Source: a virus
IMG/VR virus record: IMGVR_UViG_3300035703_000045
Span: 1 to 64,000 of that record
Direction: 5' to 3' (one strand)
Length of the DNA: 64,000 bases
The position numbers were made by a program, and so were the translations under genes. This document shows, in pieces, positions 4,158-37,722 of this stretch (its first letter is position 1; each line of letters begins with the position of its first letter). The notes beneath the pieces were generated by a model. It saw only the letters and a program-made list of their open reading frames with translations. It ran no database searches and was not told the origin of the DNA.

Positions 4158-4173
4158 TAATACAGTATAACAG

Positions 4174-4247
4174 TACCGGGTACGGGAATTGAACCCGTCT
4201 ACGAGTGTATATAAGACACCTTGCGTCAACCAGACGCACCACCCGGT
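4174..4247 (-). tRNA. tRNA-Ile, anticodon UAU (no encoded CCA)
   Basis: Cloverleaf on the minus strand: ACCGGGT acceptor; TGCG/CGCA D-stem; GGTGT-CTTATAT-ACACT anticodon arm; ACGGG-TTCAATT-CCCGT T-arm; ACCCGGT-A. Confidence 0.9.
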
Positions 4248-6543: not shown

Positions 6544-8181
6544 TTATTTTACAATTCCGTGCTTTGCAATTATTTGATCAATTTTAGAACGAGTTGCTTC
6601 TGCATGCTCTTCTTTAAAACCTTTTGGTAATTCTGGAAGTTGAGCACCAGACTGACGAGCAAGACCGTAGGCTTTTGCGTACTCAATCTTTTTATCGTAC
6701 ACTAATTTGTCAATCCATTTAGAAATCTCTGGGTGTAGTTCCCCAGATTGGCTCATTCCTGCTATTTCATCACGTTTTGCTTTTTCAGCAGTATGCGCTT
6801 TCAATCTGTCACGAAGGTCTTCTCCTCGTGTGTCCTCATACTTAAACCTTGTTTTACCACCATGAGGATCTTTTACTACGGACATTCCACGTTTATTGAC
6901 ATACCGTTCTCGGGCAAGCACATGTTGATTTCGTGCTTGGCGTTCAATAGTGTGTTCAAACGGTACTTCTGTCCGTGCTCCAGCCAGTAACGCTTCACCA
7001 CGGGGAGACCTAGCAATAGGTGCTCCCGCTGGATTACCAAAGCGGTCAATATCTGGTGCAATGTCTGGGAATAGGGACTGTTGGATATGGTCCCCTTCAA
7101 CCGCTTTGATACGGTTTTGATATTCCGTTTCATGAGGAAGGTCAGTATGTCCCATTTCTTTTTGCAGTAGGTGGGTTGTCATACGATGTATGGCAGATGT
7201 GTCTCGTCTTGGGTTACGCTTACCCTCTAAATTAAGATCGTCCCTTAAAGTACCTGCTAAACGGGTTGCTTCAAGGATAAGGGAAGCAGGAACAACTTTT
7301 CCTGTTTGGTGTGAATAGTCAAAAGCCGTTTGATATGCCTGTGCCGCATCATCGCCACCAACACTTCTAAAAAAGTCAGGACTGTACATGGTATTAAAAT
7401 TACCTTTGCCCTGATACTTAGTACGATACCCCTCGGCAGATCCCTCGGTAATGGGGGTAGCGTTAAAGTGAATTGAGGGTGCTTCTAACTCACGGTAGCG
7501 ACCAGTATCAAAGTGTGCGTATCGGCTAAGGTTTTTACGACCAGATTTTCTAATGGCACTTCTGTCTGGGTTTGTAAATAAAACACCTATACCGCCGTCC
7601 ATAGATTTTGGTGCCTCTAGGTCTGGGGCATTCGCATCATTTTCCCAGATCCTTCTATGTACTTTATGTAATTCTAATTCTAATTGTGATTGGCTTAAGT
7701 CGTGTTGAAGAACGTGCGCTAATTCGTGAACCATGACGGCACGGCGGCTTTCCATAGGAAGGCTTGATTTGTAGGTGACCTCTCCACTTGTTATGTCGTG
7801 GGTGCCACCTACACCCTTAGTTAACGAACTAAAAAAGCCTTTTCCTGAATCAGATACAACAACTGACCCAGCACGTTGTAAATCAGTAACAGGCATATCT
7901 GACAGCCTTAACATGTTTACAACATCATTAGTTGGTTCTGAAAACGAACTACGTTTTCCACGACTCATATTTAAGTTATCGTGGAATAACTCACGAGACA
8001 TGGCCTTACCTAATTGATTTCTATACAAAGAGTTAAACCTATCTCCATATAGATAGTTTTCTTTGATAGTAGATATGCGGAAGTCTTTTTCTGCTTTATC
8101 TAAGTCAACGCCCGGAAGGGTCAATTGGTCAGGATTGTCACCGGGATTACGAGTAATTGAAAATTGTTTACTTAATTCCAT
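6544..8181 (-). CDS. Protein with zincin-like HExxH metallopeptidase motif
   Basis: AVMVHELAHVLQ with downstream TEGSAEGY; N-terminal LSKQF and NPDQLTL; internal QQSLF. Confidence 0.55.
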   Translation of the reverse strand: MELSKQFSITRNPGDNPDQLTLPGVDLDKAEKDFRISTIKENYLYGDRFNSLYRNQLGKAMSRELFHDNLNMSRGKRSSFSEPTNDVVNMLRLSDMPVTDLQRAGSVVVSDSGKGFFSSLTKGVGGTHDITSGEVTYKSSLPMESRRAVMVHELAHVLQHDLSQSQLELELHKVHRRIWENDANAPDLEAPKSMDGGIGVLFTNPDRSAIRKSGRKNLSRYAHFDTGRYRELEAPSIHFNATPITEGSAEGYRTKYQGKGNFNTMYSPDFFRSVGGDDAAQAYQTAFDYSHQTGKVVPASLILEATRLAGTLRDDLNLEGKRNPRRDTSAIHRMTTHLLQKEMGHTDLPHETEYQNRIKAVEGDHIQQSLFPDIAPDIDRFGNPAGAPIARSPRGEALLAGARTEVPFEHTIERQARNQHVLARERYVNKRGMSVVKDPHGGKTRFKYEDTRGEDLRDRLKAHTAEKAKRDEIAGMSQSGELHPEISKWIDKLVYDKKIEYAKAYGLARQSGAQLPELPKGFKEEHAEATRSKIDQIIAKHGIVK

Positions 8182-8218
8182 TACAATCCCTTACTAACCG
8201 AGGTACCTATAGGATACA

Positions 8219-8743
8219 TCATGAAAATGATGGATTATCCCCTAGACCTTCAAACAACCTTTGGTTCCAACCTTCTGGTCCTCTGAGGTCCATCTTTCCT
8301 TCCCTTGCATACACTAACTGCGCTCGTAAAGGATGGGAGAACCTAAAACTAGGTGCCATGAACTCATCGTCATTCTGAGGCTCATTTTGAAGGTTTAAAA
8401 GATGCTCAGGGGTTGCACGAGGACCATGAATGTTTTTGTCTACCATCCAATGACCCTCAGTCGGGGTAACCCTATAAACATACAAAGACTTTGGTAATCC
8501 ATTGCGACGTGGATAGTTAGCATGAGCCGCCCAAGAAATAGCGGTTCCAAGGTGACTAGTAGCATAGTTGAAGTTCTTACTCATATCCCATATAGGTTTT
8601 GAGGAACTTCTGTAGTCAATGTGTGTCAGATTTGGTTGATCAGTACCATGGTACAAATCACCAAACTGGTCTAGCGACACGGTGGTGTTGTTAGTGAGCC
8701 TTCCTTCTGGGGTAACTCCAAGGTAAAGTAGGGGATTTTTCAT
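8219..8743 (-). CDS. ADP-ribosyltransferase-like protein (Arr-like signature)
   Basis: LYHGT...FNYAT...AISWA...LYVYRVTPT...VDKN resembles the Arr pattern YHGT...YFT...VYxVEPTG...DPN. Confidence 0.55.
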   Translation of the reverse strand: MKNPLLYLGVTPEGRLTNNTTVSLDQFGDLYHGTDQPNLTHIDYRSSSKPIWDMSKNFNYATSHLGTAISWAAHANYPRRNGLPKSLYVYRVTPTEGHWMVDKNIHGPRATPEHLLNLQNEPQNDDEFMAPSFRFSHPLRAQLVYAREGKMDLRGPEGWNQRLFEGLGDNPSFS

Positions 8744-9280
8744 TTAGCGCACGTCCCCTAAGTTTGGAAGGTTATCAAAGGTTGTTGGAATAATTGGTCG
8801 CCTTCCCCGATAGTCGTACTCTCCGATAGTTCTAATGTCGTGTTTTGGATCAAAGCGGTCGTACACCAATGGTAGGTATATATCATGGCCTTGTTGCTCT
8901 AAATCAAAAGCCGCCGCAAAACGATGATGACCATTACCCATTTGGAAGTGACGAATACGGCTCATACTTGTTTGTTCTGGGGTCATATACGCCCGTGCTT
9001 TAGGACCGGGGGGCATAAGAACAATAGGTGTTTTAATTCCTTCTAACCGTACGCTATCAACCAGTCCAGAGCGATGTGCTTCTTCTAGTTTTGTTTTATG
9101 TAGTTTTGACGTAGCGTAGCGTTCAGGGGTAATTTCATCCCACTCAAGTTCATTTGAATCTAGGAAACCCCTAAGACGACCTAGTATTTCTGATGGTCGT
9201 GAAAATAACCTTAATTGGTCTGGGTTAGATCCGGGGTCACTACTTAATAGTTGGGGATTAATATGTTCAAATGCGCTCAT
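8744..9280 (-). CDS. ParB/Srx-like domain protein
   Basis: LVDSVRLEGIKTPIVL...GNGHHRFAAAFDL matches the ParB N-terminal GxxR motif. Confidence 0.7.
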   Translation of the reverse strand: MSAFEHINPQLLSSDPGSNPDQLRLFSRPSEILGRLRGFLDSNELEWDEITPERYATSKLHKTKLEEAHRSGLVDSVRLEGIKTPIVLMPPGPKARAYMTPEQTSMSRIRHFQMGNGHHRFAAAFDLEQQGHDIYLPLVYDRFDPKHDIRTIGEYDYRGRRPIIPTTFDNLPNLGDVR

Positions 9281-9286
9281 ACAGAC

Positions 9287-9730
9287 CTACTTAAATTGAG
9301 ACATATAGTCGTTGTACGTCTGGATATCCTCGTCCGTTACGCCTTCCTTACTCACCAGTAGTCGGGCAGGGAAGTTACCAACCACACGAGCACCACTGGC
9401 ATGGCGTGAGTCTGAAATTATGGCATGTCTTGATGAGGTGTCTCTTAGAAGGCGACCAGATGGTTCAACCACATGGATGAACCCTGAAGGAACTGTACTT
9501 TCATTTGCAGAGTCTTCAGGAGTCCATGCGTATTGTAGTGCCGTGATGGGGTGGGGTGTCATGTAAATACGATTGGGCTTATACCCTGTATTTGCCATAT
9601 CACGGGCTTTGATATGTTCTGGAGTACTGACCTTTAGAGCAGGAAGAACCGGCTCACCTACTGGGATACGAATTGGTGACCCGTGTAGCAAATATTTAAA
9701 CTGTGAACTAAGACTTCCTGATGCACTCAT
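9287..9730 (-). CDS. ADP-ribosyltransferase-like protein (Arr-like signature)
   Basis: LLHGS...PVGEPVLP...RIYMT...ALQYA...FIHVVEPSG. Confidence 0.6.
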   Translation of the reverse strand: MSASGSLSSQFKYLLHGSPIRIPVGEPVLPALKVSTPEHIKARDMANTGYKPNRIYMTPHPITALQYAWTPEDSANESTVPSGFIHVVEPSGRLLRDTSSRHAIISDSRHASGARVVGNFPARLLVSKEGVTDEDIQTYNDYMSQFK

Positions 9731-10209
9731 CCGTTATCTACTTTTTCCATACCAGCGTAACGAACTAGTCCATTTTTGACGGAATCTTTATGGAATATGT
9801 GAGAGATACTTCCGTAGTCTTCTACAGAGTTACGAAACTTAATTGCTGAAGTTGGGTTAACTAAAGAAACATCCGCTGGTTGTGTTTCCCACAATTCAGG
9901 TTGTTCACCACTTTTAAGTCCTAGTGGAGTATCACCTGATTGCATCATGTCGTCACCCCATAGTTCGGGGCGAACCATAGATACAGGAATGTCGTATTTA
10001 TGAATGTAATTTCTGCTAATTAACGACTTAGCCGCCGCTTCCGTACCAGCATAAATAAATCTGCCCTGTGGATTACTCTGAGTTAAGTGACCACTTTTTC
10101 TTATTTTCTGTGCATAGTCATCACTATCTTGCTCATGCACAGGTAGTGGACTATCAGAACTATGGAATACCCGAACGAACTGATCTCCAAGAGAGTTTTT
10201 AGCCGACAT
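9727..10209 (-). CDS. ADP-ribosyltransferase-like protein, paralog family A
   Basis: VFHSS...IYAGTEAAA...IHKYDIP...FRNSVEDYGSISH; clear paralog of the genes at 11602 and 12463. Confidence 0.55.
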   Translation of the reverse strand: MSAKNSLGDQFVRVFHSSDSPLPVHEQDSDDYAQKIRKSGHLTQSNPQGRFIYAGTEAAAKSLISRNYIHKYDIPVSMVRPELWGDDMMQSGDTPLGLKSGEQPELWETQPADVSLVNPTSAIKFRNSVEDYGSISHIFHKDSVKNGLVRYAGMEKVDNG

Positions 10210-10238
10210 CAGTCCCCCATAGACTGTAGTGCTACAAA

Positions 10239-10658
10239 TCAGTAGTTGTAGTCACTACGGTTGCGGATGGCCTCATTAAGGTCTTCTTTAGCCAGTGTGA
10301 CATTCTCACCCCGGTTCCGGGCGGCACGGTACCGATCAAGCATTGGCTGAGTATGGTACTCACTGATGTCATCATCATTTGTGACAGGAACCTTATCGCC
10401 ACCACCGGGGTAGTACGAGGGAAGCGAGTGCTTGCTGTGGAATTCTTCTACTGGGCCGTAGTCTGAAGGAGCAGGCATGTCATTCTCTTCGTACCAATCA
10501 TAATCCTCATGGAGACTCATTGCTGACTCGTTAAAGTAGTTAGCCAGAACACGAGAAAGACGTGGTAGGTCAGAACGACCAATATTCTTATTCATGTCGT
10601 GGGTTACCTTACCAGCGTGTAGGGGTCGGCCTCGGTGGTCGGATGCGGTCATATTCAA
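10239..10658 (-). CDS. Hypothetical protein
   Basis: AAGGAG RBS and TATTAT -10 upstream. Confidence 0.55.
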   Translation of the reverse strand: MNMTASDHRGRPLHAGKVTHDMNKNIGRSDLPRLSRVLANYFNESAMSLHEDYDWYEENDMPAPSDYGPVEEFHSKHSLPSYYPGGGDKVPVTNDDDISEYHTQPMLDRYRAARNRGENVTLAKEDLNEAIRNRSDYNY

Positions 10659-10700
10659 CTCCTTAATATTGAGTGCTCGGTCTATAATACACCAAATAAT

Positions 10701-11510
10701 TTAGTTGGGAAAATAACCTCTTGGATCAAGTTTAGCCCAAGTACCAGTTTCAAGATCTACAACATCATGAAAAGTCGTCTTGGGATTAACTGTATGACTA
10801 ACACCTAAAAATTGACCACTTAAATGATGTGGTTTATTTTGTCTGATACTAGATATTTCAGATTCTGGCATGTTAGTAATGAGTTCAGACAGACGTTCAG
10901 AAAGTTCAGGATTTGCGTTTCTTTTTCTATTGAATTCTCCAAAACGTGAATAAATATCGTCTCGTGCATGTAAAAATTTAAAATGTGAATCAGTATCGTG
11001 TGGATCCCAATGACTACTAAGAAGGTCTAGATTAAGTACCCGAGAATCTTTACTTGGTTCAAATACTGCCTTATCAATAGAACCATGCATTGCCTTATCA
11101 CCACTTGCGACTGTGCCAGAAAACGGTTTACGATGAGCGGCTTCATATACAAGGCTTCCATATGCGTCATCTTGTATGGCTTTTCGTAGTCCAACAGTCA
11201 TATTAGTGGGAAATACTGCCGCTTGAAGGATCGCTGATGGGTGAGAAAGCCCTTCTTCCCTCATATCAAAGCGTAGTGTGTCATCGGAGAATATATTTTT
11301 GTGTTTAGTTGGATCAATATTATATGATAATAGATCTTTTCCAATCATATGTGATATTTCTGATCCGGGCCTAATAAGGCCAGTACCCATATCAATACCA
11401 GCATTAAAATGAGACAACCTACGAATATGAAATTCAGGATCCCTTAAATTACCTAATCCTGATCTAAAACGAATATCAGATAAATTAGAGTTTCTAAGTA
11501 ATTCAGGCAT
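10701..11510 (-). CDS. Hypothetical protein carrying an HLSGQF tag
   Basis: 269-aa ORF with GGAGG RBS. Confidence 0.65.
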   Translation of the reverse strand: MPELLRNSNLSDIRFRSGLGNLRDPEFHIRRLSHFNAGIDMGTGLIRPGSEISHMIGKDLLSYNIDPTKHKNIFSDDTLRFDMREEGLSHPSAILQAAVFPTNMTVGLRKAIQDDAYGSLVYEAAHRKPFSGTVASGDKAMHGSIDKAVFEPSKDSRVLNLDLLSSHWDPHDTDSHFKFLHARDDIYSRFGEFNRKRNANPELSERLSELITNMPESEISSIRQNKPHHLSGQFLGVSHTVNPKTTFHDVVDLETGTWAKLDPRGYFPN

Positions 11511-11601
11511 ACAATCCTCCGAGTATATTCATTTTACTTTAAAATTGTGGTCATATACTACAAGATCTTTATTAGACGGCGATTTTTTGCACTTATACCT
11601 A

Positions 11602-12048
11602 TTAGTTGTCCCACAATGTGGGCTGGTACCTCCCGCCAGACATCACAGTTATAGCATTTGCAATGGCTTGACCGTCTTCTCCACGAAGTTCTTGGAATTG
11701 GGGACCAAGGTGCTTCACATGCTTACCTACAAAGTGGCTAGGGATAACATAGGAGGTAGAACCAACGTCCTCTACGGCGTTTGTGTACGGATAAATACGA
11801 TTAGTTTTGTGCTCAGGAACAATTTTTCCGCCCCTGTTGTATGGGTCTTCCCAATCCTTTACCCGTGAAGTAGGAGCAGTGTCGGGTATTTCATAGGCGT
11901 GTACCGTGGCGATGCCCCCAGACTCCTCCGCTTCATCTAAACGATCCTTAGCGGCCTTACGAGTACCGGCATGAAAGGTCTCTTGATCGTACTCATGGGG
12001 TGGTTTGGACTCAAATGTCCCGTGGTAGACGATCTTAGATGCGCTCAT
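11602..12048 (-). CDS. ADP-ribosyltransferase-like protein, paralog family A
   Basis: VYHGT...FHAGTRKAAKDR...VHAYEIP...YTNAVEDVGSTSYV; resembles polyvalent-protein ART domains. Confidence 0.6.
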   Translation of the reverse strand: MSASKIVYHGTFESKPPHEYDQETFHAGTRKAAKDRLDEAEESGGIATVHAYEIPDTAPTSRVKDWEDPYNRGGKIVPEHKTNRIYPYTNAVEDVGSTSYVIPSHFVGKHVKHLGPQFQELRGEDGQAIANAITVMSGGRYQPTLWDN

Positions 12049-12051
12049 GGC

Positions 12052-12435
12052 TCAATCCTTGAACTGGTCGCCTAGATGTGCTCGTTTTTCCATCTCATTC
12101 ATACGCCAAGAACGTAATTGACGCTCATAATCAGTTGCATGGCTGTGGCGAGGACCAAAAGCGGCAGGAGTGATCTCATGGTCTCCCCGTCCCAGTGCCA
12201 TTGGGCCAGAGCCACGGGGGTCATCATGCAACCAACCTTCGGAAAATCCTAGATTTATGAATGGTCTAGGTCGTTCAATGCCTTCAACACCACCCACAAC
12301 CAATCCAGAGTCAGTTGGAGTCTCAAACCGATGGTGAGGAGTCTCTAATCTAAAGGAGCCAGAACGGATAGGAAGACCACATTCAGCACATGATGGCTGT
12401 ACTAACGTCGGATCTTCAATGGGGAAATCAGTCAT
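12052..12435 (-). CDS. Hypothetical protein with CxxC motif and C-terminal HLGDQF
   Basis: CAECGLPI...WLH...H; leaderless-type promoter upstream. Confidence 0.6.
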   Translation of the reverse strand: MTDFPIEDPTLVQPSCAECGLPIRSGSFRLETPHHRFETPTDSGLVVGGVEGIERPRPFINLGFSEGWLHDDPRGSGPMALGRGDHEITPAAFGPRHSHATDYERQLRSWRMNEMEKRAHLGDQFKD

Positions 12436-12448
12436 GGCTCAATAATAC
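12433..12448 (-). promoter_or_regulatory. Leaderless promoter GTATTATTGAGCC-ATG, copy 1
   Basis: -10 TATTAT lies 6 nt before the ATG; identical 16-mer at 12895-12910. Confidence 0.55.
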
Positions 12449-12462
12449 ATTAGATTGTAAGG

Positions 12463-12897
12463 TCAGGATAAAGACATACCCATATACTTGATTTTATTAT
12501 CATTTATGTCTTTTTTATGCATAATGTAAGAAATACTGCCCTTATCTTCAACTTGGTTACGATACTGAAGTACTTCTCCGGGTTTAACGTCACGAGGTCT
12601 TACTGGAACTGTTTCCCACAAAGTGGGTCCACTTTTATCGGCAAGTTCCATAACTATGCGTGAGTCTCGTTCTGAGTCCGGGTCATGATCATCATCAGCC
12701 CAGATTTCAGGACGAAGCATACTTACAGGGATTCGGTAATGATGAATAACATCTCTACCTGACTCCATCATACGGTCAATTGCGGCTTGTTCAGTACCAG
12801 CAAAAACATGAGGATGACCATATCGTACATGGGGAGCATTGTTATCCATTGATGCGTGGTACACATCAATAAACTGTGGTCCGTCAGGTATTGGCAT
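12463..12897 (-). CDS. ADP-ribosyltransferase-like protein, paralog family A
   Basis: VYHAS...VFAGTEQAAIDR...IHHYRIP...YRNQVEDKGSISYI. Confidence 0.55.
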   Translation of the reverse strand: MPIPDGPQFIDVYHASMDNNAPHVRYGHPHVFAGTEQAAIDRMMESGRDVIHHYRIPVSMLRPEIWADDDHDPDSERDSRIVMELADKSGPTLWETVPVRPRDVKPGEVLQYRNQVEDKGSISYIMHKKDINDNKIKYMGMSLS

Positions 12898-12910
12898 GGC
12901 TCAATAATAC
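12895..12910 (-). promoter_or_regulatory. Leaderless promoter GTATTATTGAGCC-ATG, copy 2
   Basis: Identical to 12433-12448; heads the minus-strand array. Confidence 0.55.
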
Positions 12911-13021
12911 CAGAATAGGGCTACATTTGACTTTTGGCAGGTTACCCCCATTGCAGAATAGGGCTATTGCGTAGTTTTGGTGTTATTGGGTGGTTGGCCC
13001 TGCACCATTCGCCGTGAAGCC

Positions 13022-13717
13022 TGTGGATTAACCATGGGGGGTGTGGATATCCCTGTGGATAATGCCGTTATCCACAGCCCTATCTGTGGATAAGTGGTGT
13101 AGTTATCCACATCCCTGTGGGCAATTCTGTGGATAAGTGGCTGTCAAGGGGCAATTGTGTGACATTTGTCATGTGGATAACCCCATTTCCTGTGGATAAC
13201 TATGTGGATAACCCCGAAACCCTGTGTATAACCCATTTCAGCCTGTGGATAAAGATACCCCAAGGGGTACCGTACGCTGGGGAAATGCAAAGTGGGCTTG
13301 TTCATTGACTTTCTGCACGATTTCAGTGCATTTGCCCTGCTCAGAGGCACATTTCGTTGTCCACAGCGATCTGTGGAAATCGCCGTAGAGCCGTTTGGAG
13401 GCTCTGGAGGGGGTGCAGTGCCCCGAAACGCTGGAGGCTGTCAGAGGGCGAAATAGGGGGCAATGAGAGGAAAGTGTCATAACGTGGCATCAGCCCTAGA
13501 AATGGGGCTATGGGTGAGACAAATGTCACAAGTGGGGGGTAGGTGCAGGTATTTGCACTATGCAATCAATCCCCCATCAACTATTTGTACTCTGCAATAG
13601 TTGCACCCTACAAGTATCCCCGTCGCATCCCCCCTATGACCCCCTCTGATATCCCATTCATATATATGTCCAATTTCCGATCCAGTTATCCACAGGGGGC
13701 GCAGAAAGTTATCCACA
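13022..13717. promoter_or_regulatory. DnaA-box cluster (oriC-like or datA-like locus)
   Basis: Perfect TTATCCACA/TGTGGATAA starting at 13054, 13068, 13085, 13103, 13128, 13172, 13191, 13203, 13244, 13686, 13709; TGTGTATAA at 13223; TTGTCCACA at 13357; near-matches at 13022, 13042, 13116, 13372. Confidence 0.88.
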
Positions 13718-14018
13718 GACCCCGAATCGTCCCTACAGTGGCAGTGTGAGGTTCGCAGGGGTCACCATCGTCGGTGGCATCTCAGCATGCGTCCCTACCT
13801 CACGGTGATTCCCACCCTGCAAGGTCGCCACGCTCTCCGATGTCGCAAGTTTGACAGTGCGAGCACGACCGATGCCCCAGCGGTGCGCTGGCACGGATGG
13901 GAAGTCACCCCGTGATTACGAAATGCTCCGAACTGGGGGGATCAGAAGTTGGGCGGTCTAGCACCCGTCACCCCTGAATGCATAGCCAGTCCACCGGAGT
14001 ACGCATGCCAATTCCAAC

Positions 14019-14056
14019 GGTCTCAGGTCTCAGGTCTCACAAGGCGCAAGGTCTCA
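14019..14056 (+). repeat. GGTCTCA heptamer x4 (three tandem, one spaced)
   Basis: Copies at 14019, 14026, 14033 and 14050. Confidence 0.8.
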
Positions 14057-14119
14057 TCGTCCGTCCCCCATGTATGTGGGGGGCGATGGTCGCAGGGGTT
14101 CGCCCCGTAAAGCGACACC

Positions 14120-14175
14120 GTTGGGAGATGCCCCACTAGGGGGCGATTCATGAGGTGCGATCCCTCCTCCCAACA
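14120..14175 (+). ncRNA. tRNA-like mini-element 1 (acceptor stem plus T-arm)
   Basis: GTTGGGAG...GAGG-TGCGATC-CCTC-CTCCCAAC-A with an internal GCCCC/GGGGC hairpin. Confidence 0.4.
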
Positions 14176-14195
14176 CTGCTGACATCCCGTCAGCC

Positions 14196-14212
14196 TGCGT
14201 TCCCGTAACGCA
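14196..14212. repeat. Intergenic palindrome, copy 1 (TGCGTTCCCGTAACGCA, one mismatch)
   Basis: Matches consensus TGCGTTAC-S-GTAACGCA; lies just upstream of the GAAAGGAC RBS. Confidence 0.8.
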
Positions 14213-14231
14213 CCAACCCGAAAGGACAGCA

Positions 14232-14873
14232 ATGAACACCACCGACAACCGAGGGGTTCTCACCCCCATCCACACCGCCTGCGAGATCGCCGAGTCGGCT
14301 CTCGCTGATGCCAACGAGGTGCTCGCCTGCCTGCCAGTGATCATGGATGCCAGCGAGGGTGTCAGCAATCGTGACATCGCCTACTGGGGCGTGAGCGAGG
14401 GCATGGTTCGCCGGTACAAGGTGCTCGCCACCATCATCGCCTTGGGCGACGACGAGGGTGCCCAGTGCGATCTCTTCACGGCTCGCAAGGTCGTGAACGC
14501 CACGTTCAAGGTCAAGGGCATCACCACCGAGATGATGAACGAGGTCATCGCTGAGAGCGACACCGTGTCGCAGGCGGTCGCTGGTCTTCAGGCTCTCGCC
14601 TTGGCTCCGGTCATGACCGAGGTGGACGAGGACGAGACGGACGGCGACGGCGACGGCGACGAGGATCAGACCCCCGACCCCAAGGACGACCTCGCCAAGA
14701 AGGTCACCAACTGGCTCACGGCTGGTCAGGGTTCGCTTCGCAAGGTCGTGGAGGCGCAGGGCAACGGGTTCGTCCTGACCGATGAGCAGGTCGTCGCTCT
14801 CACCACCCTGACCGACCTCGTCGCTCAGATCAACGCCAACGCCAACGCTCAGAAGACGGTCGTCGCCGTCTGA
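14232..14873 (+). CDS. Hypothetical protein, first gene of the plus-strand region
   Basis: GAAAGGAC RBS, strong GC3 bias, acidic DGDGD linker. Confidence 0.8.
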   Translation: MNTTDNRGVLTPIHTACEIAESALADANEVLACLPVIMDASEGVSNRDIAYWGVSEGMVRRYKVLATIIALGDDEGAQCDLFTARKVVNATFKVKGITTEMMNEVIAESDTVSQAVAGLQALALAPVMTEVDEDETDGDGDGDEDQTPDPKDDLAKKVTNWLTAGQGSLRKVVEAQGNGFVLTDEQVVALTTLTDLVAQINANANAQKTVVAV

Positions 14874-14880
14874 TGACACC

Positions 14881-14948
14881 GCCAGTAGCAGTGGGGATGC
14901 CACGGGGCATCAGCAATCCCACGGGGGGTTCAACTCCCCCCACTGGCA
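14881..14948 (+). ncRNA. tRNA-like mini-element 2 (acceptor stem plus T-arm, no D-arm)
   Basis: GCCAGT...GTGGG-GATGCC-ACGG-GGCATC...CCCAC-G-GGGGG-TTCAACT-CCCCC-C-ACTGGC-A. Confidence 0.5.
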
Positions 14949-14998
14949 CTGCTGGACGAGTGCACGGGCAACTGTGCGCTCGTCTAGTATCAACACCG

Positions 14999-15015
14999 TG
15001 CGTTACCGTAACGCA
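14999..15015. repeat. Intergenic palindrome, copy 2
   Basis: TGCGTTACCGTAACGCA upstream of the RBS of the gene at 15035. Confidence 0.85.
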
Positions 15016-15034
15016 CCCGAATGAAAGGACAGCC

Positions 15035-15874
15035 ATGAACCAGCCCAGCGAGAAGCAGATCGGATTCATCCGGTCTCTCGTCAACGAGCGTCGTCAGACG
15101 CTCACCGACCTCAAGCCCGAGTGGCTCACCACTCCGACCACGACCCGTGAGGCGAGCGACATCATCTCCCGACTGATGGATCTGCCCCGTGACCCGAAGG
15201 CTCCGACCGCCGAAGATGCCGACCTCGCCACCGACATGGCAATCCTCAAGAACGGACTGGGCGAATTGTCGGGGCGTGACTTCCACTTCGCCTCGTCGCT
15301 CGTCAAGCAGTACGAAGAGCGTGGCACCCTGTCCGACCGCCAACGGGCGTTCATCCCCAAGTTGTTCAAGGCGATGGACGGTGCTGACAAGCCCGTGCCC
15401 ATGGGCATCCACCGTGCCAGCGACGGCACCATCGTCCTCGTCTACCTGACCAAGAACGGTCGTCAGGCTGGCAAGGTGCTGGACGAGGGCACCTTCATCT
15501 ACGCCAGCGGTGTCATCGCCCGTTTCAACCTGTCCGACGAGACGGTGATCTCGCAGGCGCAGGCTCAGGAGTTCGGGCGCACCCACGGCTTCTGCGTGGC
15601 ATGTGCCAAGCCCCTCACCGACGACCGCTCGCTCGCATCGGGCTACGGCGCAGTGTGCGCTGGCAAGTACGGGTGGCACTACTGCACCCGTGAAGAGGCG
15701 GTGGCGATCTTGGGTCGCCCCGTCGCCTGCCAGCACCAGTGGGAGTTGGTCAAGACGGACACCAACTACTACAACCCCCAATTGGGGACGGGGTCGTGGA
15801 CGGAGCACTACGAGTGCGCCAACTGCGACGAGTGCAAGACGGTCAACATCGTCAACAACCGCTCGGGCGACTGA
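15035..15874 (+). CDS. DUF6011-like zinc-binding protein
   Basis: GFCVACAKPLTDDRSLASGYGAVCA; N-terminal SEKQIGFIRSL; start moved to the ATG after GAAAGGAC. Confidence 0.7.
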   Translation: MNQPSEKQIGFIRSLVNERRQTLTDLKPEWLTTPTTTREASDIISRLMDLPRDPKAPTAEDADLATDMAILKNGLGELSGRDFHFASSLVKQYEERGTLSDRQRAFIPKLFKAMDGADKPVPMGIHRASDGTIVLVYLTKNGRQAGKVLDEGTFIYASGVIARFNLSDETVISQAQAQEFGRTHGFCVACAKPLTDDRSLASGYGAVCAGKYGWHYCTREEAVAILGRPVACQHQWELVKTDTNYYNPQLGTGSWTEHYECANCDECKTVNIVNNRSGD

Positions 15875-15935
15875 TCAGGGGGTGGTATCGGGCAATCTGA
15901 TATCCATCCCATATCCCATCCGACTGCTGGGGGGT

Positions 15936-15952
15936 TGCGTTACCGTAACGCA
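15936..15952. repeat. Intergenic palindrome, copy 3
   Basis: TGCGTTACCGTAACGCA flanked by a G-run and a C-run. Confidence 0.85.
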
Positions 15953-16002
15953 CCCCCTAGCCTGACCCTTCCAACCAACCCAACCACCGAAAGGACACCA
16001 CC

Positions 16003-17568
16003 ATGTCGTTCATTGACGACTTCCTCAACGACCTCCAGCCCACCGCTGGACGACCCTCGCCCCAACCTGTGGGCGTGTCCAGCCTCACCGTCCCGACCCT
16101 GCACCTGCCCCTGATGGACTACCAGCAGGAGTCGGTGCAGTTCGCATTGACCCGTCGCAGTGCCTACCTCGCCCTTGACATGGGCTTGGGCAAGACGGCA
16201 GTCGCCATCGCCATCGCCACTGCTGTTGCCCAGCAGGAGCACCGTCAGGTGCTCATCGTGGTGCCCCCGTCGCTCCGTACCAACTGGGTGCGAGAGTTCG
16301 GGAAGTTCAGCCCCGACCTCAGCATCCACGTCTTTGACAAGTCGGCTCCCACGCCGACCATCAGGGTGCCTCGCATGGTCAACGGCTCCCCGTTGACGGT
16401 GGACGGCAAGAAGGTCATGGACGAGGTTCCCAACCCGAACCCTCCGACCCTCCCGACCAGCAACGTGCTCATCGTGGGCGACTCCACCGTGGAGGGCTGG
16501 GCGCACTGGTTGTCCACCTCTCCCCGTCCGGTCGGTGCGGTCATCGTTGATGAGGCGCATCGGATGAAGAATCCGAAGGCGTTGCGAACCAAGGCTCTCG
16601 CCCAACTCATCAAGTCCATGCCCAGCGACGGCGTGAGGATCATGATGTCGGGCACCCCTGCGCCCAACGGTCGTGCGTCGGAACTCGCCACCGCACTGGA
16701 ACTGGTGGACGGCTGGAGCACGGTCTCCAAGGGCACGTTCTGGCACTACTACTGCCCCCCTGCCAAGTTCGGTCGTGAGCATCTGCCCGAGCGTGTGCAG
16801 GAGTTGGGCGAGAAGTGCCGGAGCACGTTCATGCTCCGTCGCCTCCGTGGTGAGGTGCTGACCCTCCCGAACAAGGGACGCAGTGCCATCGCCGTGGAGG
16901 GCAAGGGCACCGCCGTGCGTAAGTACATCAGCGCAGAGGAAGACCTCATTGAATTCCTCAGCGGTGAGGGTCGCTCCACTGAGGGTGCCGGTCGTGCAGA
17001 AGCACTGGTGCGTCTCACCACTCTCCGTGCCCTCGCTGGTCAGGCGAAGGTGGACGGTGCGGTCACCCTCATCAAGGAGATGCTGGAGGACGACCCCTCG
17101 GGCATCCTCGTCATCGCAGAGCATCAGGCGGTCATGGACGCACTGGAGATGGCGTTCATCGGCAAGGCTGTCAGCATCCGTGGTGGCATGACCGACACGC
17201 AGAAGAGCGATGCCGTGGACATGTTCAACGGTGGTCACGCTCAGGTGCTCATCGGTCAGATCACCAGTGCAGGCGTGGGCTTCACCCTGCACGGTGGTGG
17301 TCGCAACCATCGGGTCGTCGTCGTGCAGTTGCCGTGGACTCCTGCTGAACTCCAGCAGGCAGAGGATCGCCTCCACCGCATCGGGCAGACGCACGATGTG
17401 GAGGTGACCATTGTGCTCACGCACATTGATGGCAAGTGGAGCATTGATGAGCGACTGTGGGGTCTCTTGGAGCAGAAGGCGTTCAGTGCCACCGCCATGA
17501 TCAACGGCGAGGGAGAGTTCCTCACGGACAGCGAAATCCGTGAGGGTCTGCTGGACACCTACCGCTGA
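16003..17568 (+). CDS. SNF2-family (SF2) helicase/translocase
   Basis: DMGLGKT, VVPPSLRTNW, DEAH, SGTP, QAEDRLHRIGQ. Confidence 0.92.
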   Translation: MSFIDDFLNDLQPTAGRPSPQPVGVSSLTVPTLHLPLMDYQQESVQFALTRRSAYLALDMGLGKTAVAIAIATAVAQQEHRQVLIVVPPSLRTNWVREFGKFSPDLSIHVFDKSAPTPTIRVPRMVNGSPLTVDGKKVMDEVPNPNPPTLPTSNVLIVGDSTVEGWAHWLSTSPRPVGAVIVDEAHRMKNPKALRTKALAQLIKSMPSDGVRIMMSGTPAPNGRASELATALELVDGWSTVSKGTFWHYYCPPAKFGREHLPERVQELGEKCRSTFMLRRLRGEVLTLPNKGRSAIAVEGKGTAVRKYISAEEDLIEFLSGEGRSTEGAGRAEALVRLTTLRALAGQAKVDGAVTLIKEMLEDDPSGILVIAEHQAVMDALEMAFIGKAVSIRGGMTDTQKSDAVDMFNGGHAQVLIGQITSAGVGFTLHGGGRNHRVVVVQLPWTPAELQQAEDRLHRIGQTHDVEVTIVLTHIDGKWSIDERLWGLLEQKAFSATAMINGEGEFLTDSEIREGLLDTYR

Positions 17569-17582
17569 CCCCACCCCGACCA

Positions 17583-17615
17583 CGGTGGGGTGCGTTACGG
17601 TAACGCACCCCACCG
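17583..17615. repeat. Intergenic palindrome, copy 4 (33-bp inverted repeat)
   Basis: CGGTGGGG-TGCGTTACGGTAACGCA-CCCCACCG. Confidence 0.9.
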
Positions 17616-17707
17616 ATATCCATATCAAAGGTTGCAATATCAGATTGCGACCCCTAGAATCCCAGTTACAAGTTCAGACCAACCCAACCACAAGAAAGGC
17701 AATCAAC

Positions 17708-18934
17708 ATGGCAACCATCCAAGAACTCGCTCTCGCCAAGCGACAGAACAAGCAGGCTCTCGCCACATCGGGAACGATGGAGGGCATGCGGTGCGACATC
17801 ATGTCGGACTCGCTCGTCCCCGACGGACAGCCCAACCAGCGCAAGGTCGCTGTCAAGTGGGAGGACGGCGAGGAGGGCTTCTACCTGCCCCGTCAGTTGG
17901 AGGTCGTGGAGCCGAAGACCCACGCCTTCATCCCGACCGCACAGCCCGTCCTCGTTGGACAGGCACAGCCCCAGCCCGTGGCGTTGTCCAGTGCCCCTGC
18001 CGTCGTGATGGGTGCGCTTCCCAGCCACCCCGACCACGACTTCTACGACGAGTTCCGTCCGTCGCCCGTCGTCAAGGAGATGCACATCGCCCGTCAGGCG
18101 ATGCTGGGGAGCGACCTCAACTCCACCGAGTACCTCATGGAGTGGTGGAACAAGCGTGACGAGTCGGGCTTCAGCAAGCCCCTCGCCCTCGTCGGTGACA
18201 CGCAGGCTGGCAAGACCATGGAGGTGGAGCGTCTCGCATTCGCCATCGCAGAGCGCATGGGTCTCAGCAAGCCCGTCCCCGTCTTCACGGTGATGGGTTC
18301 CAACGGCGTGACCGATCACGATCTGTTCGGCACCACTCGCACTGACCCCATGACGGGTCAGCCCGTGTTCATGCGTGGCACCGTGCAGATGGCTTGCGAG
18401 GCTCCCGTCGCCATCCTCTACTTGGATGAGGTCAACGCCATGGGTGGCAACGTCACCAGTGCCCTGCACCCCATCATTGACGGACGACACAAGTTCACCA
18501 ACTTGCGTCTCCCCGTCCGTACCGAGGCTGGCTACAGCCCCATGACCATCAACGTCTCCAAGGGTCTGTGGGTCATCGCCTCTTGGAACCCTGCCTACGC
18601 TGGCATGAACAAGACCAACGAGGCGTTCACCGCACGGTTCAAGGTGCTGGAGTGGAACTACGACTCCGCACTGGAAGACCACATCATCGGCTCGCCTGCG
18701 CTCCGCATGCTGGCTGACCAGTTGCGGAACCTGCGCTCCAAGCGCATCCTCAACACGCCGGTCGGTATCACCGACCTCAAGGACATCAAGTGGGAGGCGC
18801 ACAAGTTCGGTGCCAAGGTCGCACTGGATTCCTTCTTGGGCAAGTTCATCAGCGAGGCTGAGAAGATGGCGGTCTCGTCGGCAATGACCGACGGCTCCAT
18901 CTATCAAACCCTCCAGTTGGAGGTGAACTCCTGA
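17708..18934 (+). CDS. MoxR/CbbQ-like AAA+ ATPase
   Basis: Walker A GDTQAGKT, Walker B LYLDEVN, ASWNPAYAG...NEAFTARF; start at the ATG after GAAAGG. Confidence 0.85.
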   Translation: MATIQELALAKRQNKQALATSGTMEGMRCDIMSDSLVPDGQPNQRKVAVKWEDGEEGFYLPRQLEVVEPKTHAFIPTAQPVLVGQAQPQPVALSSAPAVVMGALPSHPDHDFYDEFRPSPVVKEMHIARQAMLGSDLNSTEYLMEWWNKRDESGFSKPLALVGDTQAGKTMEVERLAFAIAERMGLSKPVPVFTVMGSNGVTDHDLFGTTRTDPMTGQPVFMRGTVQMACEAPVAILYLDEVNAMGGNVTSALHPIIDGRHKFTNLRLPVRTEAGYSPMTINVSKGLWVIASWNPAYAGMNKTNEAFTARFKVLEWNYDSALEDHIIGSPALRMLADQLRNLRSKRILNTPVGITDLKDIKWEAHKFGAKVALDSFLGKFISEAEKMAVSSAMTDGSIYQTLQLEVNS

Positions 18935-18939
18935 CAGCC

Positions 18940-18974
18940 TGAGGTGGGTGCGTTACGGTAACGCACCCACCTCA
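18940..18974. repeat. Intergenic palindrome, copy 5 (35-bp inverted repeat)
   Basis: TGAGGTGGG-TGCGTTACGGTAACGCA-CCCACCTCA. Confidence 0.9.
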
Positions 18975-19074
18975 TACCCCACCCATACCGATATCAACTG
19001 CAAGCAGAACCATCCACTTGCATTTGAACTTCATCACACCCACCCCGTACACTCATCAACAGAGAGGACACATC

Positions 19075-21156
19075 ATGACGAAGAAGCAGTTGACCCCCGA
19101 AGAGATGATGGAGCGCAACGTGCGTCGGCAGATGCAGAGGCACGGTGCCAAGATCCGTGAGCGCATCAAGGCTGACACCGAACTGCACGAAGAGCAGAAG
19201 CGTCAAGAGGCGCAGAAACTCATCGCACAGATGGAGGCGAGTGCCAACCGAGGCACGGTGGAGCACAGCGACTACGACAAGGCGCAGTGGCTGTGCGACA
19301 GCATCAAGCAGATCACCACGGTCGTGGCTCGCTCGTTTGGTCAAGACCAGCCCATCGTGCACAAGTACAGCAACATGATTGCTGACCGCATGTTGATGGC
19401 GTTCACTGACCTGAAGGTGGTGACCATCGGCATCAAGCCGTCGCTCGTTCAATTCTCCAGCGACGAAGAAGTGCGGCGCACCACTGCTGTGATCAAGGGT
19501 GCCACCTACCATGAGTTCGCCCACTGCATGTGGACGAAGCATCTCATCAAGGACTACTTCCCGATTGACGATAACGCCCACAAGAACTTCAAGGCGTGGA
19601 ACCTCTTGGAGGACGGACGCATTGAGGCTCTGCTCATCGTGAAGTCTCCGATCATCAAGAAGTACCTTCTTCCGATGATGTGGGACATCGTCGTGAACGT
19701 CGGTGACGAGAGCACTGATGAGTACGACAGGGTGTACCGAATCGCACGGGCAGTACCTTTCTTGCTTGTTCGCACCTACATTCCAAAGGGCATCCAGCGT
19801 CAGGCTGTCATGAACGTGTGGAAGGTACTGGATCTCTCAAACAGAGACACCCCAGCAACTCGTCAGAATGTCAAGAACATCATCAGCGAGATGCTGTCAG
19901 TGAGCCGTGGGTACAACGCCTGCACGGACATGAATGACCAAATCCCGTTCATCGTTCGGTTCAGCGAGTTGCTCAACGAGTGGGGACAACTGTTCGGTCG
20001 GGTCTTCACCAATGACAGTGCTGGTGACCCCAGTGGTCGTACTGGTGAATCATCGTCGGTGGAATCGGTGGAGTCCCCGTCCGAGTGGGACGAGTCCGAG
20101 TGGGACAACAGCACACCTGCACCCAGCACCTCCGATGGTGACAGCAAGCCGGAGAACTCAGCCAAGGGTGAGTCGCACAAGCCATCTGATATGGATATGG
20201 AATCGGACGATGACTCCGACTTCAGCGTCAAGCCCAGCGCAGACGACAAGGACGACAAGCCCAGCGACTCCGACGACAAGGAGAACGATGGCTCCAAGGA
20301 CGATGAGCAATCGCAGGGGAAGTCATCCGACCACGGTGACGAGTCCAACAACAATCCGCACGAAGAGTTGAACAAGGCTGTCAACGAAGCCGTGAGTGAC
20401 TACGAGTTGTCGGCGGTCATGAAGCACTGGGGTGACACCCTCCGCACTGGGTTGCCCTCCTACACGCAACCTCTCCCCACCGATAGCAAAGTGACCGATG
20501 ACGGAGAGATGGTTCGCATCGGCATGATCAATGCACTGGACACGGTGGTCATGACCGCCAGCCCGTCATGGAAGTACCGCATGGAGACTGGTGCCGTGCT
20601 GGATGTGGATGCCTTCACCAACCGTGAGGTGGGTGACGATGCCTACTGGATGGACAAGGACGACAGTGGTGAGCGTGGTCACGACCTCGCCATCAGCATC
20701 CTGCTGGACTGCTCAGGCTCCATGATGGGCACATACTCCGCACTGGGGTCGTGTGCATACGGAATCCATAGCGCATCACAGTCGCTTGGTATCCCGTGCA
20801 CGACGAGCATCTTCGGGACGCACCAGTACATCCTGTGGGGCGAGGACGAGACCCCGACTCCAGTGATCATGCCCGACCTTGGTGGTACTCAGGTTCGGGA
20901 ATGCTTGGAGTCGCTCCCGACTCAACGAGCAGGCAAGTCACGGCAGATCGTGTTCATCCTCACCGATGGTGATTGGGAGTACGACATCCCCACGCTCCTG
21001 CCCTACATGGATGAGGACGTGCACATCGTTCTGATCGGATTGGGGATGCCCTTGGCAAAGTTGACTCAGAAGTCCCCCAGCCGTGCGATCACCATCAAGT
21101 CGGTGATTGATCTGCCGAAGATGGTTGAGCAGGTCATCGGAGACTTCTTCCGGTGA
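19075..21156 (+). CDS. VWA-domain protein with N-terminal HExxH region (CobT-like architecture, MoxR partner)
   Basis: YHEFAH...WNLLEDGRIE; acidic linker; MIDAS motif LLDCSGSM...GGT...ILTDG. Confidence 0.85.
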   Translation: MTKKQLTPEEMMERNVRRQMQRHGAKIRERIKADTELHEEQKRQEAQKLIAQMEASANRGTVEHSDYDKAQWLCDSIKQITTVVARSFGQDQPIVHKYSNMIADRMLMAFTDLKVVTIGIKPSLVQFSSDEEVRRTTAVIKGATYHEFAHCMWTKHLIKDYFPIDDNAHKNFKAWNLLEDGRIEALLIVKSPIIKKYLLPMMWDIVVNVGDESTDEYDRVYRIARAVPFLLVRTYIPKGIQRQAVMNVWKVLDLSNRDTPATRQNVKNIISEMLSVSRGYNACTDMNDQIPFIVRFSELLNEWGQLFGRVFTNDSAGDPSGRTGESSSVESVESPSEWDESEWDNSTPAPSTSDGDSKPENSAKGESHKPSDMDMESDDDSDFSVKPSADDKDDKPSDSDDKENDGSKDDEQSQGKSSDHGDESNNNPHEELNKAVNEAVSDYELSAVMKHWGDTLRTGLPSYTQPLPTDSKVTDDGEMVRIGMINALDTVVMTASPSWKYRMETGAVLDVDAFTNREVGDDAYWMDKDDSGERGHDLAISILLDCSGSMMGTYSALGSCAYGIHSASQSLGIPCTTSIFGTHQYILWGEDETPTPVIMPDLGGTQVRECLESLPTQRAGKSRQIVFILTDGDWEYDIPTLLPYMDEDVHIVLIGLGMPLAKLTQKSPSRAITIKSVIDLPKMVEQVIGDFFR

Positions 21157-24479: not shown

Positions 24480-24853
24480 CCGAGTGCCCGTGGTGTTCAA
24501 CAGAACTATCAGATCAGTTTGATACCTACCATATGGGTGGGGAGTGCATCGGTAACTCGTACAACCAAACCCCTCACCCGTTCAGTCGGGAGTGGTGTGA
24601 CCCTGAATGGCGAAGCAAATGGTTGATTGATCTAGATGATGATCAACTGGAGTCACTCAGTGATGGGCAGTTGAGAGACATTCTTCCTGCCTTTGAACTA
24701 GTTGGTCTTCACCGTGTGTTCGGTCAACACGCAGTAGCGGTCAGACAAATGATTGAGTCAATCATCAATTTCAAAATGGTGAATACCATGACATTCAATG
24801 ACTTCAAGAATTACAAACAAGGTCTAGATCTACTCAGTAGTAGGAGTAAGTGA
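24476..24853 (+). CDS. Hypothetical protein
   Basis: GTGA overlap; CPWC. Confidence 0.5.
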   Translation: MTECPWCSTELSDQFDTYHMGGECIGNSYNQTPHPFSREWCDPEWRSKWLIDLDDDQLESLSDGQLRDILPAFELVGLHRVFGQHAVAVRQMIESIINFKMVNTMTFNDFKNYKQGLDLLSSRSK

Positions 24854-25203
24854 TGTCAGACATCAGCAAGTCCCAGTATGAAATTTCTCACGATGAGAAG
24901 ACCATGCGTAGGTTGAAGCATCTAGAAGAGCAGAAGCAAAAGCGGGCTTTCATTAATGAGATGGAGAACATTAAGAAGATGGAGAAACGTGATTATTTAT
25001 CCATGCCGTTCTCCAAGCCGAACGAGCCACGACTTCCTGACTTCCCCATGCAGAACAAGCAGTTTCGTAGTTGTCTCGCACTTGTACTTGAGGCAATTGT
25101 GGCAGAGGTTGACAAGCACGGGTTGGATTCAGTCCATCCGTCTCTTATCCTTGCTTATGGTCTTTCATACAACACACTCAACAACAACGGAAAGAATTAC
25201 TGA
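24850..25203 (+). CDS. Hypothetical protein
   Basis: AGGAG RBS. Confidence 0.55.
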   Translation: MMSDISKSQYEISHDEKTMRRLKHLEEQKQKRAFINEMENIKKMEKRDYLSMPFSKPNEPRLPDFPMQNKQFRSCLALVLEAIVAEVDKHGLDSVHPSLILAYGLSYNTLNNNGKNY

Positions 25204-25379
25204 TCATGCAGATGTTTGACATCATGGACAACCAAACATTCGCTGGACTCCTGATCTACATCGTGTTCTGCGGTTGCAAGTTCGCAGGATGGGCTGTGGA
25301 ACAGTTGAAGTACGAAGAAGAAGAGATCTCGGCGGAAACCAACCGCCGGTGAAATACAAACACACGGGAGATATACCAA

Positions 25380-37487: not shown

Positions 37488-37489
37488 GT

Positions 37490-37717
37490 TCAGTCTCGCA
37501 GTGTGGGTCCGGGTTGACGCAAGTAACCTTGGTTGCCCTTCATAGATTGGTCAGTAATACCCTTTTCCCACTTTTGGCTGGTGCTCATACCACCCTGATC
37601 TGACATAGACCATTCAAGATCACGGGGAGATTTAACTTGAAATGGGTTGCTGGAAGATTGGGTCAACTCTTGGGGCTGTAGGGGTTGAGCAAACTGTGGT
37701 CCACTGGGGGAGGGCAT
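37490..37717 (-). CDS. Hypothetical protein (N-terminal SGPQF)
   Basis: Packed ORF. Confidence 0.55.
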   Translation of the reverse strand: MPSPSGPQFAQPLQPQELTQSSSNPFQVKSPRDLEWSMSDQGGMSTSQKWEKGITDQSMKGNQGYLRQPGPTLRD

Positions 37718-37722
37718 GGTTA

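Follow-up and report, generated by a model that had tools for sequence, protein, structure and literature searches.

In phage T4, unrelated accessory proteins (IPI-III and the ADP-ribosyltransferase Alt) share a short capsid-targeting sequence, which is confined to the N-terminus and removed by the head protease gp21 through cleavage at L/I-x-E. Encapsulins and microcompartments address unrelated cargo enzymes with a short tag at either terminus; the encapsulin peptides are uncleaved, and the encapsulin shell has the fold of phage capsid proteins. The payload signals of Photorhabdus are about 50 residues long, have no sharp consensus and need the Pvc15 ATPase. Sliding-clamp-binding motifs are terminal or near-terminal docking peptides on many unrelated proteins, with Q at the start and a hydrophobic or aromatic residue at the end. 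For the Photorhabdus virulence cassette, toxin payloads whose genes form arrays beside the tail genes are reported to be loaded into a contractile machine by disordered signals at their N-termini (PMC11495950). Here, we describe a peptide with the core Q-F that is borne by otherwise unrelated proteins encoded in one gene array (6544..12897, minus strand) of a phage. The window is the stretch of 64,000 nucleotides that was analysed, namely the first 64 kb of the 93,044-bp virus record IMGVR_UViG_3300035703_000045, which is rated 99% complete. As far as we could find, the Q-F tag is undescribed, the literature yielding only T4-type and contractile-injection-system signals.

Like the T4 signal, the Q-F peptide is a short shared leader on unrelated accessory proteins, including an ADP-ribosyltransferase (ART). 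However, it also occurs at the C-terminus (in three window proteins and in 27 of 131 representatives of the ART-fold family A, described below), it contains no L/I-x-E cleavage motif, no head protease was found in this genome, and the tagged genes look early. With the encapsulin and microcompartment peptides it shares a short, portable and putatively uncleaved form, a position at either terminus and the occurrence of one copy per cargo on unrelated enzymes; the core is G-S-L there and Q-F here, and the companion motifs found here point elsewhere. Compared with the Photorhabdus payload signals, the Q-F tag is far shorter, lying in a leader of 5-10 residues, and has a defined core. Motifs of the sliding-clamp type (QLRLF, a terminal QLSLF and QLSLPGV) stand next to or near Q-F in the window phage and its relatives. 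However, the Q-F core lacks consensus positions 2-4 and its sequence is therefore not that of a clamp motif; it might provide an additional contact or be read by another partner.

Occurrence and enrichment of the Q-F peptide

The array consists of ten co-oriented genes, nine of which carry a Q-F (or Q-L) peptide near one end and the tenth half of a leader; all array positions given here are on the minus strand. Near the N-terminus, ELSKQF (8161..8178) occupies residues 2-7 of a 545-amino-acid (aa) peptidase-like protein with an HExxH motif (HELAH; 6544-8181), and VSLDQF (8663..8680) occupies residues 22-27 of a 174-aa protein (8219-8743), where it lies directly ahead of GDLYHGT. The 178-aa ParB-like protein (8744-9280) has the Q-L variant HINPQL (9248..9265, residues 6-11) in the leader MSAFEHINPQL, the counterpart of which in the related locus L005 reads MPAHEHINQEQL. 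SLSSQF (9698..9715) and SLGDQF (10177..10194) both form residues 6-11, the former in a 147-aa protein of family B (9287-9730; LHGSP...HVVEP) and the latter in a 160-aa protein with a predicted ART fold (9727-10209; family A, type 1). A second type-1 member of family A, the 144-aa predicted ART-fold protein 12463-12897, carries PDGPQF (12871..12888) as residues 4-9 of a leader of the form M-P-x-P-x-G-P-Q-F.

Near the C-terminus, HLSGQF (10809..10826) forms residues 229-234 of a 269-aa protein (10701-11510), 35 residues from the end. HLGPQF (11695..11712) forms residues 113-118 of a 148-aa predicted ART-fold protein (11602-12048; family A, type 2), 30 residues from the end, and HLGDQF (12061..12078) forms residues 120-125 of a 127-aa protein (12052-12435), with only 2 residues after it. 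The tenth gene encodes a 139-aa protein (10239..10658) that starts (MN)MTASDH, which is the first half of the leader, and has no Q-F. Outside the array, PSGPQF (37691..37708, minus strand) is found at residues 4-9 of a 75-aa protein (37490-37717), and the same gene is present in locus L065. All ten peptides quoted in an earlier note on this DNA were found as written; the coordinates given with them there are the low ends of minus-strand genes, not the motif sites.

The pattern L-[GS]-x-Q-F occurs six times in the 2,031 residues of the array proteins, compared with 0.03 expected from composition (Poisson P ~1e-12; ~200-fold), and twice in the 28,056 residues encoded elsewhere in the phage, compared with 0.41 expected. 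A looser terminal-motif test was positive for 8/10 array proteins and for 8/139 others (Fisher P 1e-7). The frequency in the array is far above chance, and the leader recurs in the relatives. Only three of the ten proteins (12463, 9727 and 11602) are detectable paralogues, and even among these the motif is not always at the same end (N-terminal in 12463 and 9727, C-terminal in 11602, as the earlier note had recognised), so paralogy does not explain the motif. The remaining pairwise similarities among array proteins are limited to the tag region. In addition, the codons of the tag differ between copies, indicating that it is conserved at the protein level. Collectively, these data confirm that the Q-F peptide is a real, portable and selected tag that is carried by unrelated proteins at either terminus. 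A DNA-level repeat was also considered as the cause of the motif and rejected, since the DNA repeats in the array are short and weak and the codons vary.

Anatomy of the tag

The constant core of the tag is Q-F, which usually stands in the context [LIM]-[GSN]-x(1-2)-Q-F or G-P-Q-F. It is borne on a flexible N-terminal leader of 5-10 residues or lies just after the last strand at the C-terminus. In a tagged GNAT family from the relatives, Q11 and F12 are invariant in 19 sequences, whereas the leader swaps among MAAHENLSNLQF, MPKPTGPQF, MLNKLQF and MGRQF, indicating that Q-F is the selected element and that the leaders are interchangeable. Among 131 full-length family-A representatives, 55 carry Q-F before strand 1, 27 carry a C-terminal [YH]LGxQF and none carries both (Fisher P 6e-8). 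In type-2 members of family A, which have no N-terminal leader, Q117 is invariant in 29 sequences, like the catalytic residues, and L, G and F are conserved at 90% or above.

In the structure models, Q-F marks the beginning of the first strand (at F9 for ART and at Q11 for GNAT), and confidence is lowest before it: residues 1-6 of the GNAT model have a predicted local distance difference test (pLDDT) score below 50, and residues 1-10 of the ART model have a mean pLDDT of 85, compared with at least 93 in every later block. In the family-A proteins P0115 and P0119, the leader MASSDNLHSQQF is located more than 100 residues upstream of the domain and is therefore not part of the fold. ART and GNAT, the two modelled tagged folds, are unrelated. 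The tag is thus shown to be enriched, portable across unrelated folds, present once per protein and located at the domain edge.

The tag in related phages

Related loci L005-L008 were fetched with family B, and further loci with back-translated leader patterns. In L005, L006, L007/G001, L014 and L020, the arrays are syntenic and the leader opens almost every gene, either as M-A-A-H-E-x-[LIM]-[SN]-x-x-Q-F (form I), as M-P-x-P-x-G-P-Q-F (form II) or in shorter versions such as MALNPDQF and MPLGPQF (form III). After removal of the tag, 58 unique tagged proteins fell into 36 groups without BLAST similarity, which bears out the earlier description of a portable label on otherwise unrelated proteins. 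Family B (9287-9730) has 13 metagenomic homologues with 53-64% identity (54-64% by BLASTP), in all of which Q-F directly precedes LHGSP, with variable spacing.

The strict leader pattern was found in 6/149 open reading frames (ORFs) of the window phage's genome. In its relative G001, whose capsid protein is 84% identical to that of the window phage, 7/108 ORFs match, all of them consecutive array genes and none of them a tail, baseplate or head protein. No match was found among 104 ORFs of the cultured Streptomyces phage BRock (50 kb examined). The relative G002, which has a high guanine plus cytosine (GC) content, harbors a single tagged GNAT gene, situated between tail-fibre genes and lysis genes.

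Predicted functions of the tagged proteins

Family A (12463, 9727 and 11602) is represented by 148 cluster representatives, recovered from public metagenomes by a profile search of 1.8 billion proteins. For the model of the 12463-12897 protein (pLDDT 95.9), the best structural matches are all ARTs, namely ParT (Z 7.1), diphtheria toxin (Z 7.0), RES, MbcT, exotoxin A and PARPs, these Z values being moderate. Residues H14, Y54 and E117 are invariant in 46 family-A sequences, and H9, Y52 and E93 in 29 type-2 sequences; this H-Y-E triad was assigned by position in the fold, not by superposition. The proteins 12463-12897, 9727-10209 and 11602-12048 are thus modelled as having the ADP-ribosyltransferase fold together with the H-Y-E triad and are predicted transferases, in agreement with the ART array of the earlier note.

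A six-member tagged family of the relatives (e.g. L005 11075-11431) matches Pfam Acetyltransf_1 with 23.1 bits, above the cut-off of 20.7, and is assigned to the GNAT acetyltransferases; its homologues are named RimI-like by their sources. The HExxH motif is present in the 545-aa protein (6544-8181) and in large tagged proteins of L005/L053 and L063, and two further HExxH proteins, of L048 and L068, carry the C-terminal LPGME motif only. The assignment of 6544-8181 as a peptidase is based on weak Pfam matches below the cut-offs together with the HExxH motif. The 8744-9280 protein contains a ParB-like GNGHHRF motif. With its ART, GNAT, HExxH and ParB-like members, the tagged set resembles a collection of enzymes that modify proteins or nucleic acids. 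When the profiles of families A and B were compared, the alignment was confined to the leader and strand 1 (19% probability), so that a common origin of the two families would be conjectural.

Gene starts and putative promoters

Many array genes of the relatives have TATAAT or TATACT 5-7 nucleotides (nt) before the ATG or overlap the preceding stop codon (TAATG), whereas structural genes have GGAGG ribosome sites without such -10 boxes. In the window, the 16-nt repeat D17, GTATTATTGAGCCATG (12895..12910, minus strand), places TATTAT 6 nt before the ATG of 12463-12897 and is a candidate promoter for a leaderless transcript; an identical copy (12433-12448) places TATTAT at the same distance from the ATG of 12052-12435. 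In addition, ATTGAGCCATG precedes three genes of the window array, the third at 12046-12056, and in the relatives L007 and L014 unrelated genes follow one shared promoter-like stretch of 21 nt, tttttacttagcgtataatta. These shared stretches hint at an exchange of cassettes behind fixed promoters. The array genes form the first operon on the minus-strand side of a divergent control region. The presence of -10 boxes set for leaderless transcripts before array genes, and of GGAGG before structural genes, suggests that the array genes may be expressed early, by the host polymerase, as leaderless messages.

Only 3 nt separate the stop codon of 12052-12435 from the ATG of 11602-12048, and both codons share one frame (12046-12054). 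HLGDQFKD forms the end of the upstream product, and the gene downstream encodes the ART protein that has no N-terminal leader.

Companion motifs and a possible docking function

The published clamp-binding consensus is Q-phi-x-L-F or Q-phi-x-L-x-L, as in Hda (QLSLPL), Pol IV (QLVLGL) and mycobacterial ImuB (QLPLWG). Similar motifs occur in the window, at coordinates that were derived by hand. QLTLPGV (8107..8127, minus strand; residues 19-25 of 6544-8181) resembles the clamp-binding hexapeptide, QLRLF (9203..9217, minus strand; residues 22-26 of 8744-9280) fits the pentapeptide Q-phi-x-L-F, and QLSLF (25701-25715, plus strand), at the extreme C-terminus of a 112-aa protein (25380-25718), is a perfect match to the pentapeptide. 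Both QLRLF and QLSLF fit the consensus, and QLTLPGV and QLSLPGV fit except for G at position 6. Q-[LP]-x-[LI]-[PT]-[GF] is present in the first 20 residues of 9/9 orthologues of the 545-aa protein, mostly as Q-x-x-[LI]-P-G with a hydrophobic residue and D behind it. In 6/9 it is immediately preceded by a leader of the form M-[ED]-L-[SG]-x-Q-F, as in MELSEQFTQLSLPGVD. Several proteins of the relatives end in [LM]-S-x-Q-F-x(0-4)-L-P-G-M-[ED]-G-F. The tails of the tagged proteins thus look like strings of short docking peptides, which is the main reason why docking in the cytoplasm is preferred here.

Tentatively, and ahead of the explanations considered below, we favour the Q-F peptide as a portable docking peptide that would link enzymes of early host takeover to a single shared partner inside infected cells. 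Q-F would then be a portable short linear recognition motif on a variable set of small enzymes, and the common partner that reads it in the infected cell would bring these host-modifying enzymes to the same place. The frequent position of the tag beside clamp-binding-like motifs would favour the replisome or another host hub over the procapsid as the partner. Partner binding, the identity of the partner and early expression are points that we only infer.

Several observations weigh against such docking. The F of the tag starts the first beta-strand in both models and so may be buried in part and out of a partner's reach. The distance from the hydrophobic residue to Q is not fixed (2 or 3 residues), an uncommon property in a docking motif. 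The Q-F core itself does not fit the clamp consensus, as it has neither the aliphatic residue of position 2 nor the L of position 4, and the clamp-like motifs are sequence matches only. The early timing rests on promoter-like hexamers only, and a generic promoter and terminator scan of the region was uninformative, giving fewer promoter sites than shuffles did. No gene was found to co-occur with all arrays, the zinc-ribbon, 2-oxoglutarate-oxygenase, methyltransferase and desaturase genes each being missing from some.

Shared terminal tags are among the few sequence features that can group unannotatable phage accessory genes into one functional set, and the Q-F tag links at least 36 unrelated protein groups of an uncultured BRock-related lineage. 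If one partner reads the tag, identifying it would show where the protein-modifying toolkit acts during takeover and would make effectors of this kind easy to recognise by a simple criterion.

A second terminal motif, L-P-G-M-[ED]-G-F, is found at the extreme C-terminus of proteins at L038 26-2552, L068 2704-7362, L059 12625 and L045 1793 and of the ART-family protein P0100, and is often preceded within five residues by [LM]-S-x-Q-F. In L014 and L020, genes at the array edge encode N-terminal EQLEMF, EQLQMF and DQLAMF.

Alternative explanations

The earlier note had proposed that the tag loads effectors into the virion. On this account, the tag would bind the inside of the procapsid (coat, scaffold or portal), working like the T4 capsid-targeting sequence or, uncleaved, like encapsulin cargo-loading peptides, and the enzymes would be packaged and injected with the DNA. 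We consider this unlikely, although it has attractive features. Encapsulin and microcompartment cargo is generally known to be addressed in the same two-ended manner, T4 Alt is a known packaged ADP-ribosyltransferase, the tagged set resembles an effector toolkit, and the single tagged gene of G002 lies between tail-fibre and lysis genes. A further packaged example is the ART-like domain in a pre-ejectosome chain of cyanophage A4 (9k3a_B; PMC12002296), which matched our model at Z 4.9.

However, virion loading is not supported by the data, and several observations weigh against it. The genome, which is 99% complete, yielded no homologue of Peptidase_S77, Peptidase_S78 or Prp, and PHROGs did not annotate any head protease, an unrecognised protease being conceivable; the protease site that the earlier note offered as a second role for the tag likewise finds no support in this genome. 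By the strict leader pattern, no head or tail protein of the window phage or G001 carries an N-terminal tag. The array heads an operon beside the control region and has host-type -10 boxes. BRock, with a capsid protein 59% identical to that of the window phage, is tag-free in the 50 kb examined, and the companion motifs resemble clamp-binding peptides, which act in the cytoplasm. The earlier argument that the array is oriented like the structural genes is empty, because the replication genes lie on that strand as well.

Loading could also proceed without proteolysis. By analogy with encapsulins, Q-F might be a protease-independent cargo-loading peptide that docks ARTs, acetyltransferases and peptidases onto the inner face of the HK97-fold capsid from either terminus, which we likewise hold to be doubtful. 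Should it apply, the phage would inject a ready-made enzyme arsenal, and the injected proteins would be predictable from sequence throughout the lineage; with the capsid as partner, the tag would be a phage counterpart of encapsulin cargo loading. The head module itself (G000 76011-79644, corresponding to L009 13011-16644) encodes the portal, a 259-aa highly charged helical protein that is probably the scaffold, and the capsid protein, in this order, and no protease was recognised in it.

Rather improbable, in our view, is a processing or modification site, at which a common enzyme would cut or modify the proteins at Q-F, removing a pro-peptide at the domain boundary and thereby activating or inactivating the enzymes. 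The obvious candidates for the common enzyme would be the tagged HExxH proteins, and HExxH proteins recur in the arrays of the window phage, L005/L053, L048, L063 and L068. The invariance of Q-F alone, behind interchangeable leaders of varied length and sequence, is typical of a cleavage site, and Q-F falls exactly where the low-confidence leader gives way to the first strand or, at the other terminus, directly behind the last strand. However, cutting would achieve little where only 2-3 residues follow a C-terminal tag (proteins ending QFKD, QFGD or QFLG), some N-terminal leaders comprise only 5-6 residues, no array gene is common to all tagged phages seen, and the peptidase assignment rests on the sub-cut-off Pfam matches and the HExxH motif.

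A specific form of processing is known from Prp, whose substrates (ribosomal protein L27 and the head proteins of staphylococcal phage 80alpha) have N-terminal extensions of 9-14 residues that contain L-x-L-Q-F. The tagged leaders resemble these in being N-terminal extensions that contain Q-F. However, in the Prp site L-N-L-Q-F-F is followed by A, with the cut between F and A, and this pattern was not seen here. To our knowledge, actinobacteria lack the Prp system. A Prp/L27-type cleavage site was rejected, as Q-F is followed by many different residues (S, K, V, I, G, L, Q, A) and no PF04327 match was obtained in the phage.

It is quite improbable that the dipeptide has no recognition function at all. 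In that case, Q-F would merely be a favourable start of the first strand, the leader would have been spread by recombination of cassettes (promoter plus first codons) at gene starts, and the C-terminal copies would be relics of replaced genes. Consistent with this, F begins strand 1 in both models, family-A members without Q-F hold M, Y or I at the same position, and the last strand of family A already reads [YH]-[LMA]-G. The end of 12052-12435, HLGDQFKD, resembles the type-2 family-A end YLGDQFKKQD (P0133), and the promoter-like stretches tttttacttagcgtataatta and ATTGAGCCATG recur before unrelated genes in L007/L014 and before three window genes, respectively. However, the same dipeptide would be required by two unrelated folds and by many proteins whose fold is unknown, Q stays invariant despite varying codons, the tag follows a strict rule of either end and never both, leaders are found more than 100 residues from the domain, and the DNA repeats of the array are short and weak. 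Finally, a shared degradation signal, by which a host or phage protease would remove early enzymes after their work, is highly improbable, since, although signals for AAA+ proteases are generally short and at either terminus and early, potentially toxic enzymes would be plausible clients, the tag has no likeness to the ClpX, Lon or N-end signals known to us and nothing in the data specifically favours it.

Source genome and neighbouring features

The window phage encodes baseplate, sheath, tape-measure, portal, capsid and terminase proteins as well as a replication module, with the replication genes and structural genes on the same strand. Its capsid protein is 59% identical to the one in Streptomyces phage BRock and its kin, and for Bacillus phage BCD7 the value is 44%; given the identity to BRock, the host is probably an actinobacterium. 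A DNA similarity search of the array and replication region against 50,697 phage records returned no match, and tblastn of the 12463-12897 and 9287-9730 proteins against the same records detected no relative. Searches for related loci with the single proteins 6544-8181 and 9727-10209 found none, and family B had no relative in 185,579 prokaryote genomes. Pfam and PHROGs gave almost no matches for the ten array proteins, and in the 32.8-40.8 kb around the distant tagged gene PHROGs identified a queuine tRNA-ribosyltransferase only.

Nowhere in the first 62 kb is the AT content higher than in the array (6544-12897, minus strand), which has 42.5-43.4% GC. The array begins about 60 nt from a cluster of TTATCCACA boxes, on the far side of which GC-rich plus-strand genes diverge. 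This dense DnaA-box cluster (12960-13250) contains TTATCCACA in both orientations and is located directly upstream of the first array gene, at the switch of strand and GC content. The diverging plus-strand region (14000-20000) has 58-63% GC, and the rest of the genome 40-52% GC. A tRNA-Ile gene with the anticodon TAT (4173-4247) is located between the array and the tail-fibre genes.

In the relatives, a 57-aa zinc-ribbon protein (MPTY-x-YKCP...GRGFYSNGG) is encoded in or beside the arrays at L005 6070-6243 and eight other loci, on 8 distinct contigs, and is absent from the window genome. Within the array of L005 (6895-7776; also G001 138-1019), a gene behind a leaderless-type promoter encodes a 293-aa membrane protein with the histidine boxes HAAAHRH, HIEHHKN and HTEHHLYP, which is fatty-acid-desaturase-like. 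Different shared leaders were also observed: in the window (37167-38157), MAKGQDS-x3-PSRKV opens two proteins whose bodies are rich in G, S, P and Q, and in G001 (24668-28134) five small proteins open with close variants of M-P-R-G-[EQ]-D-T-R-H-H, in some cases followed by R-[KR]-V.

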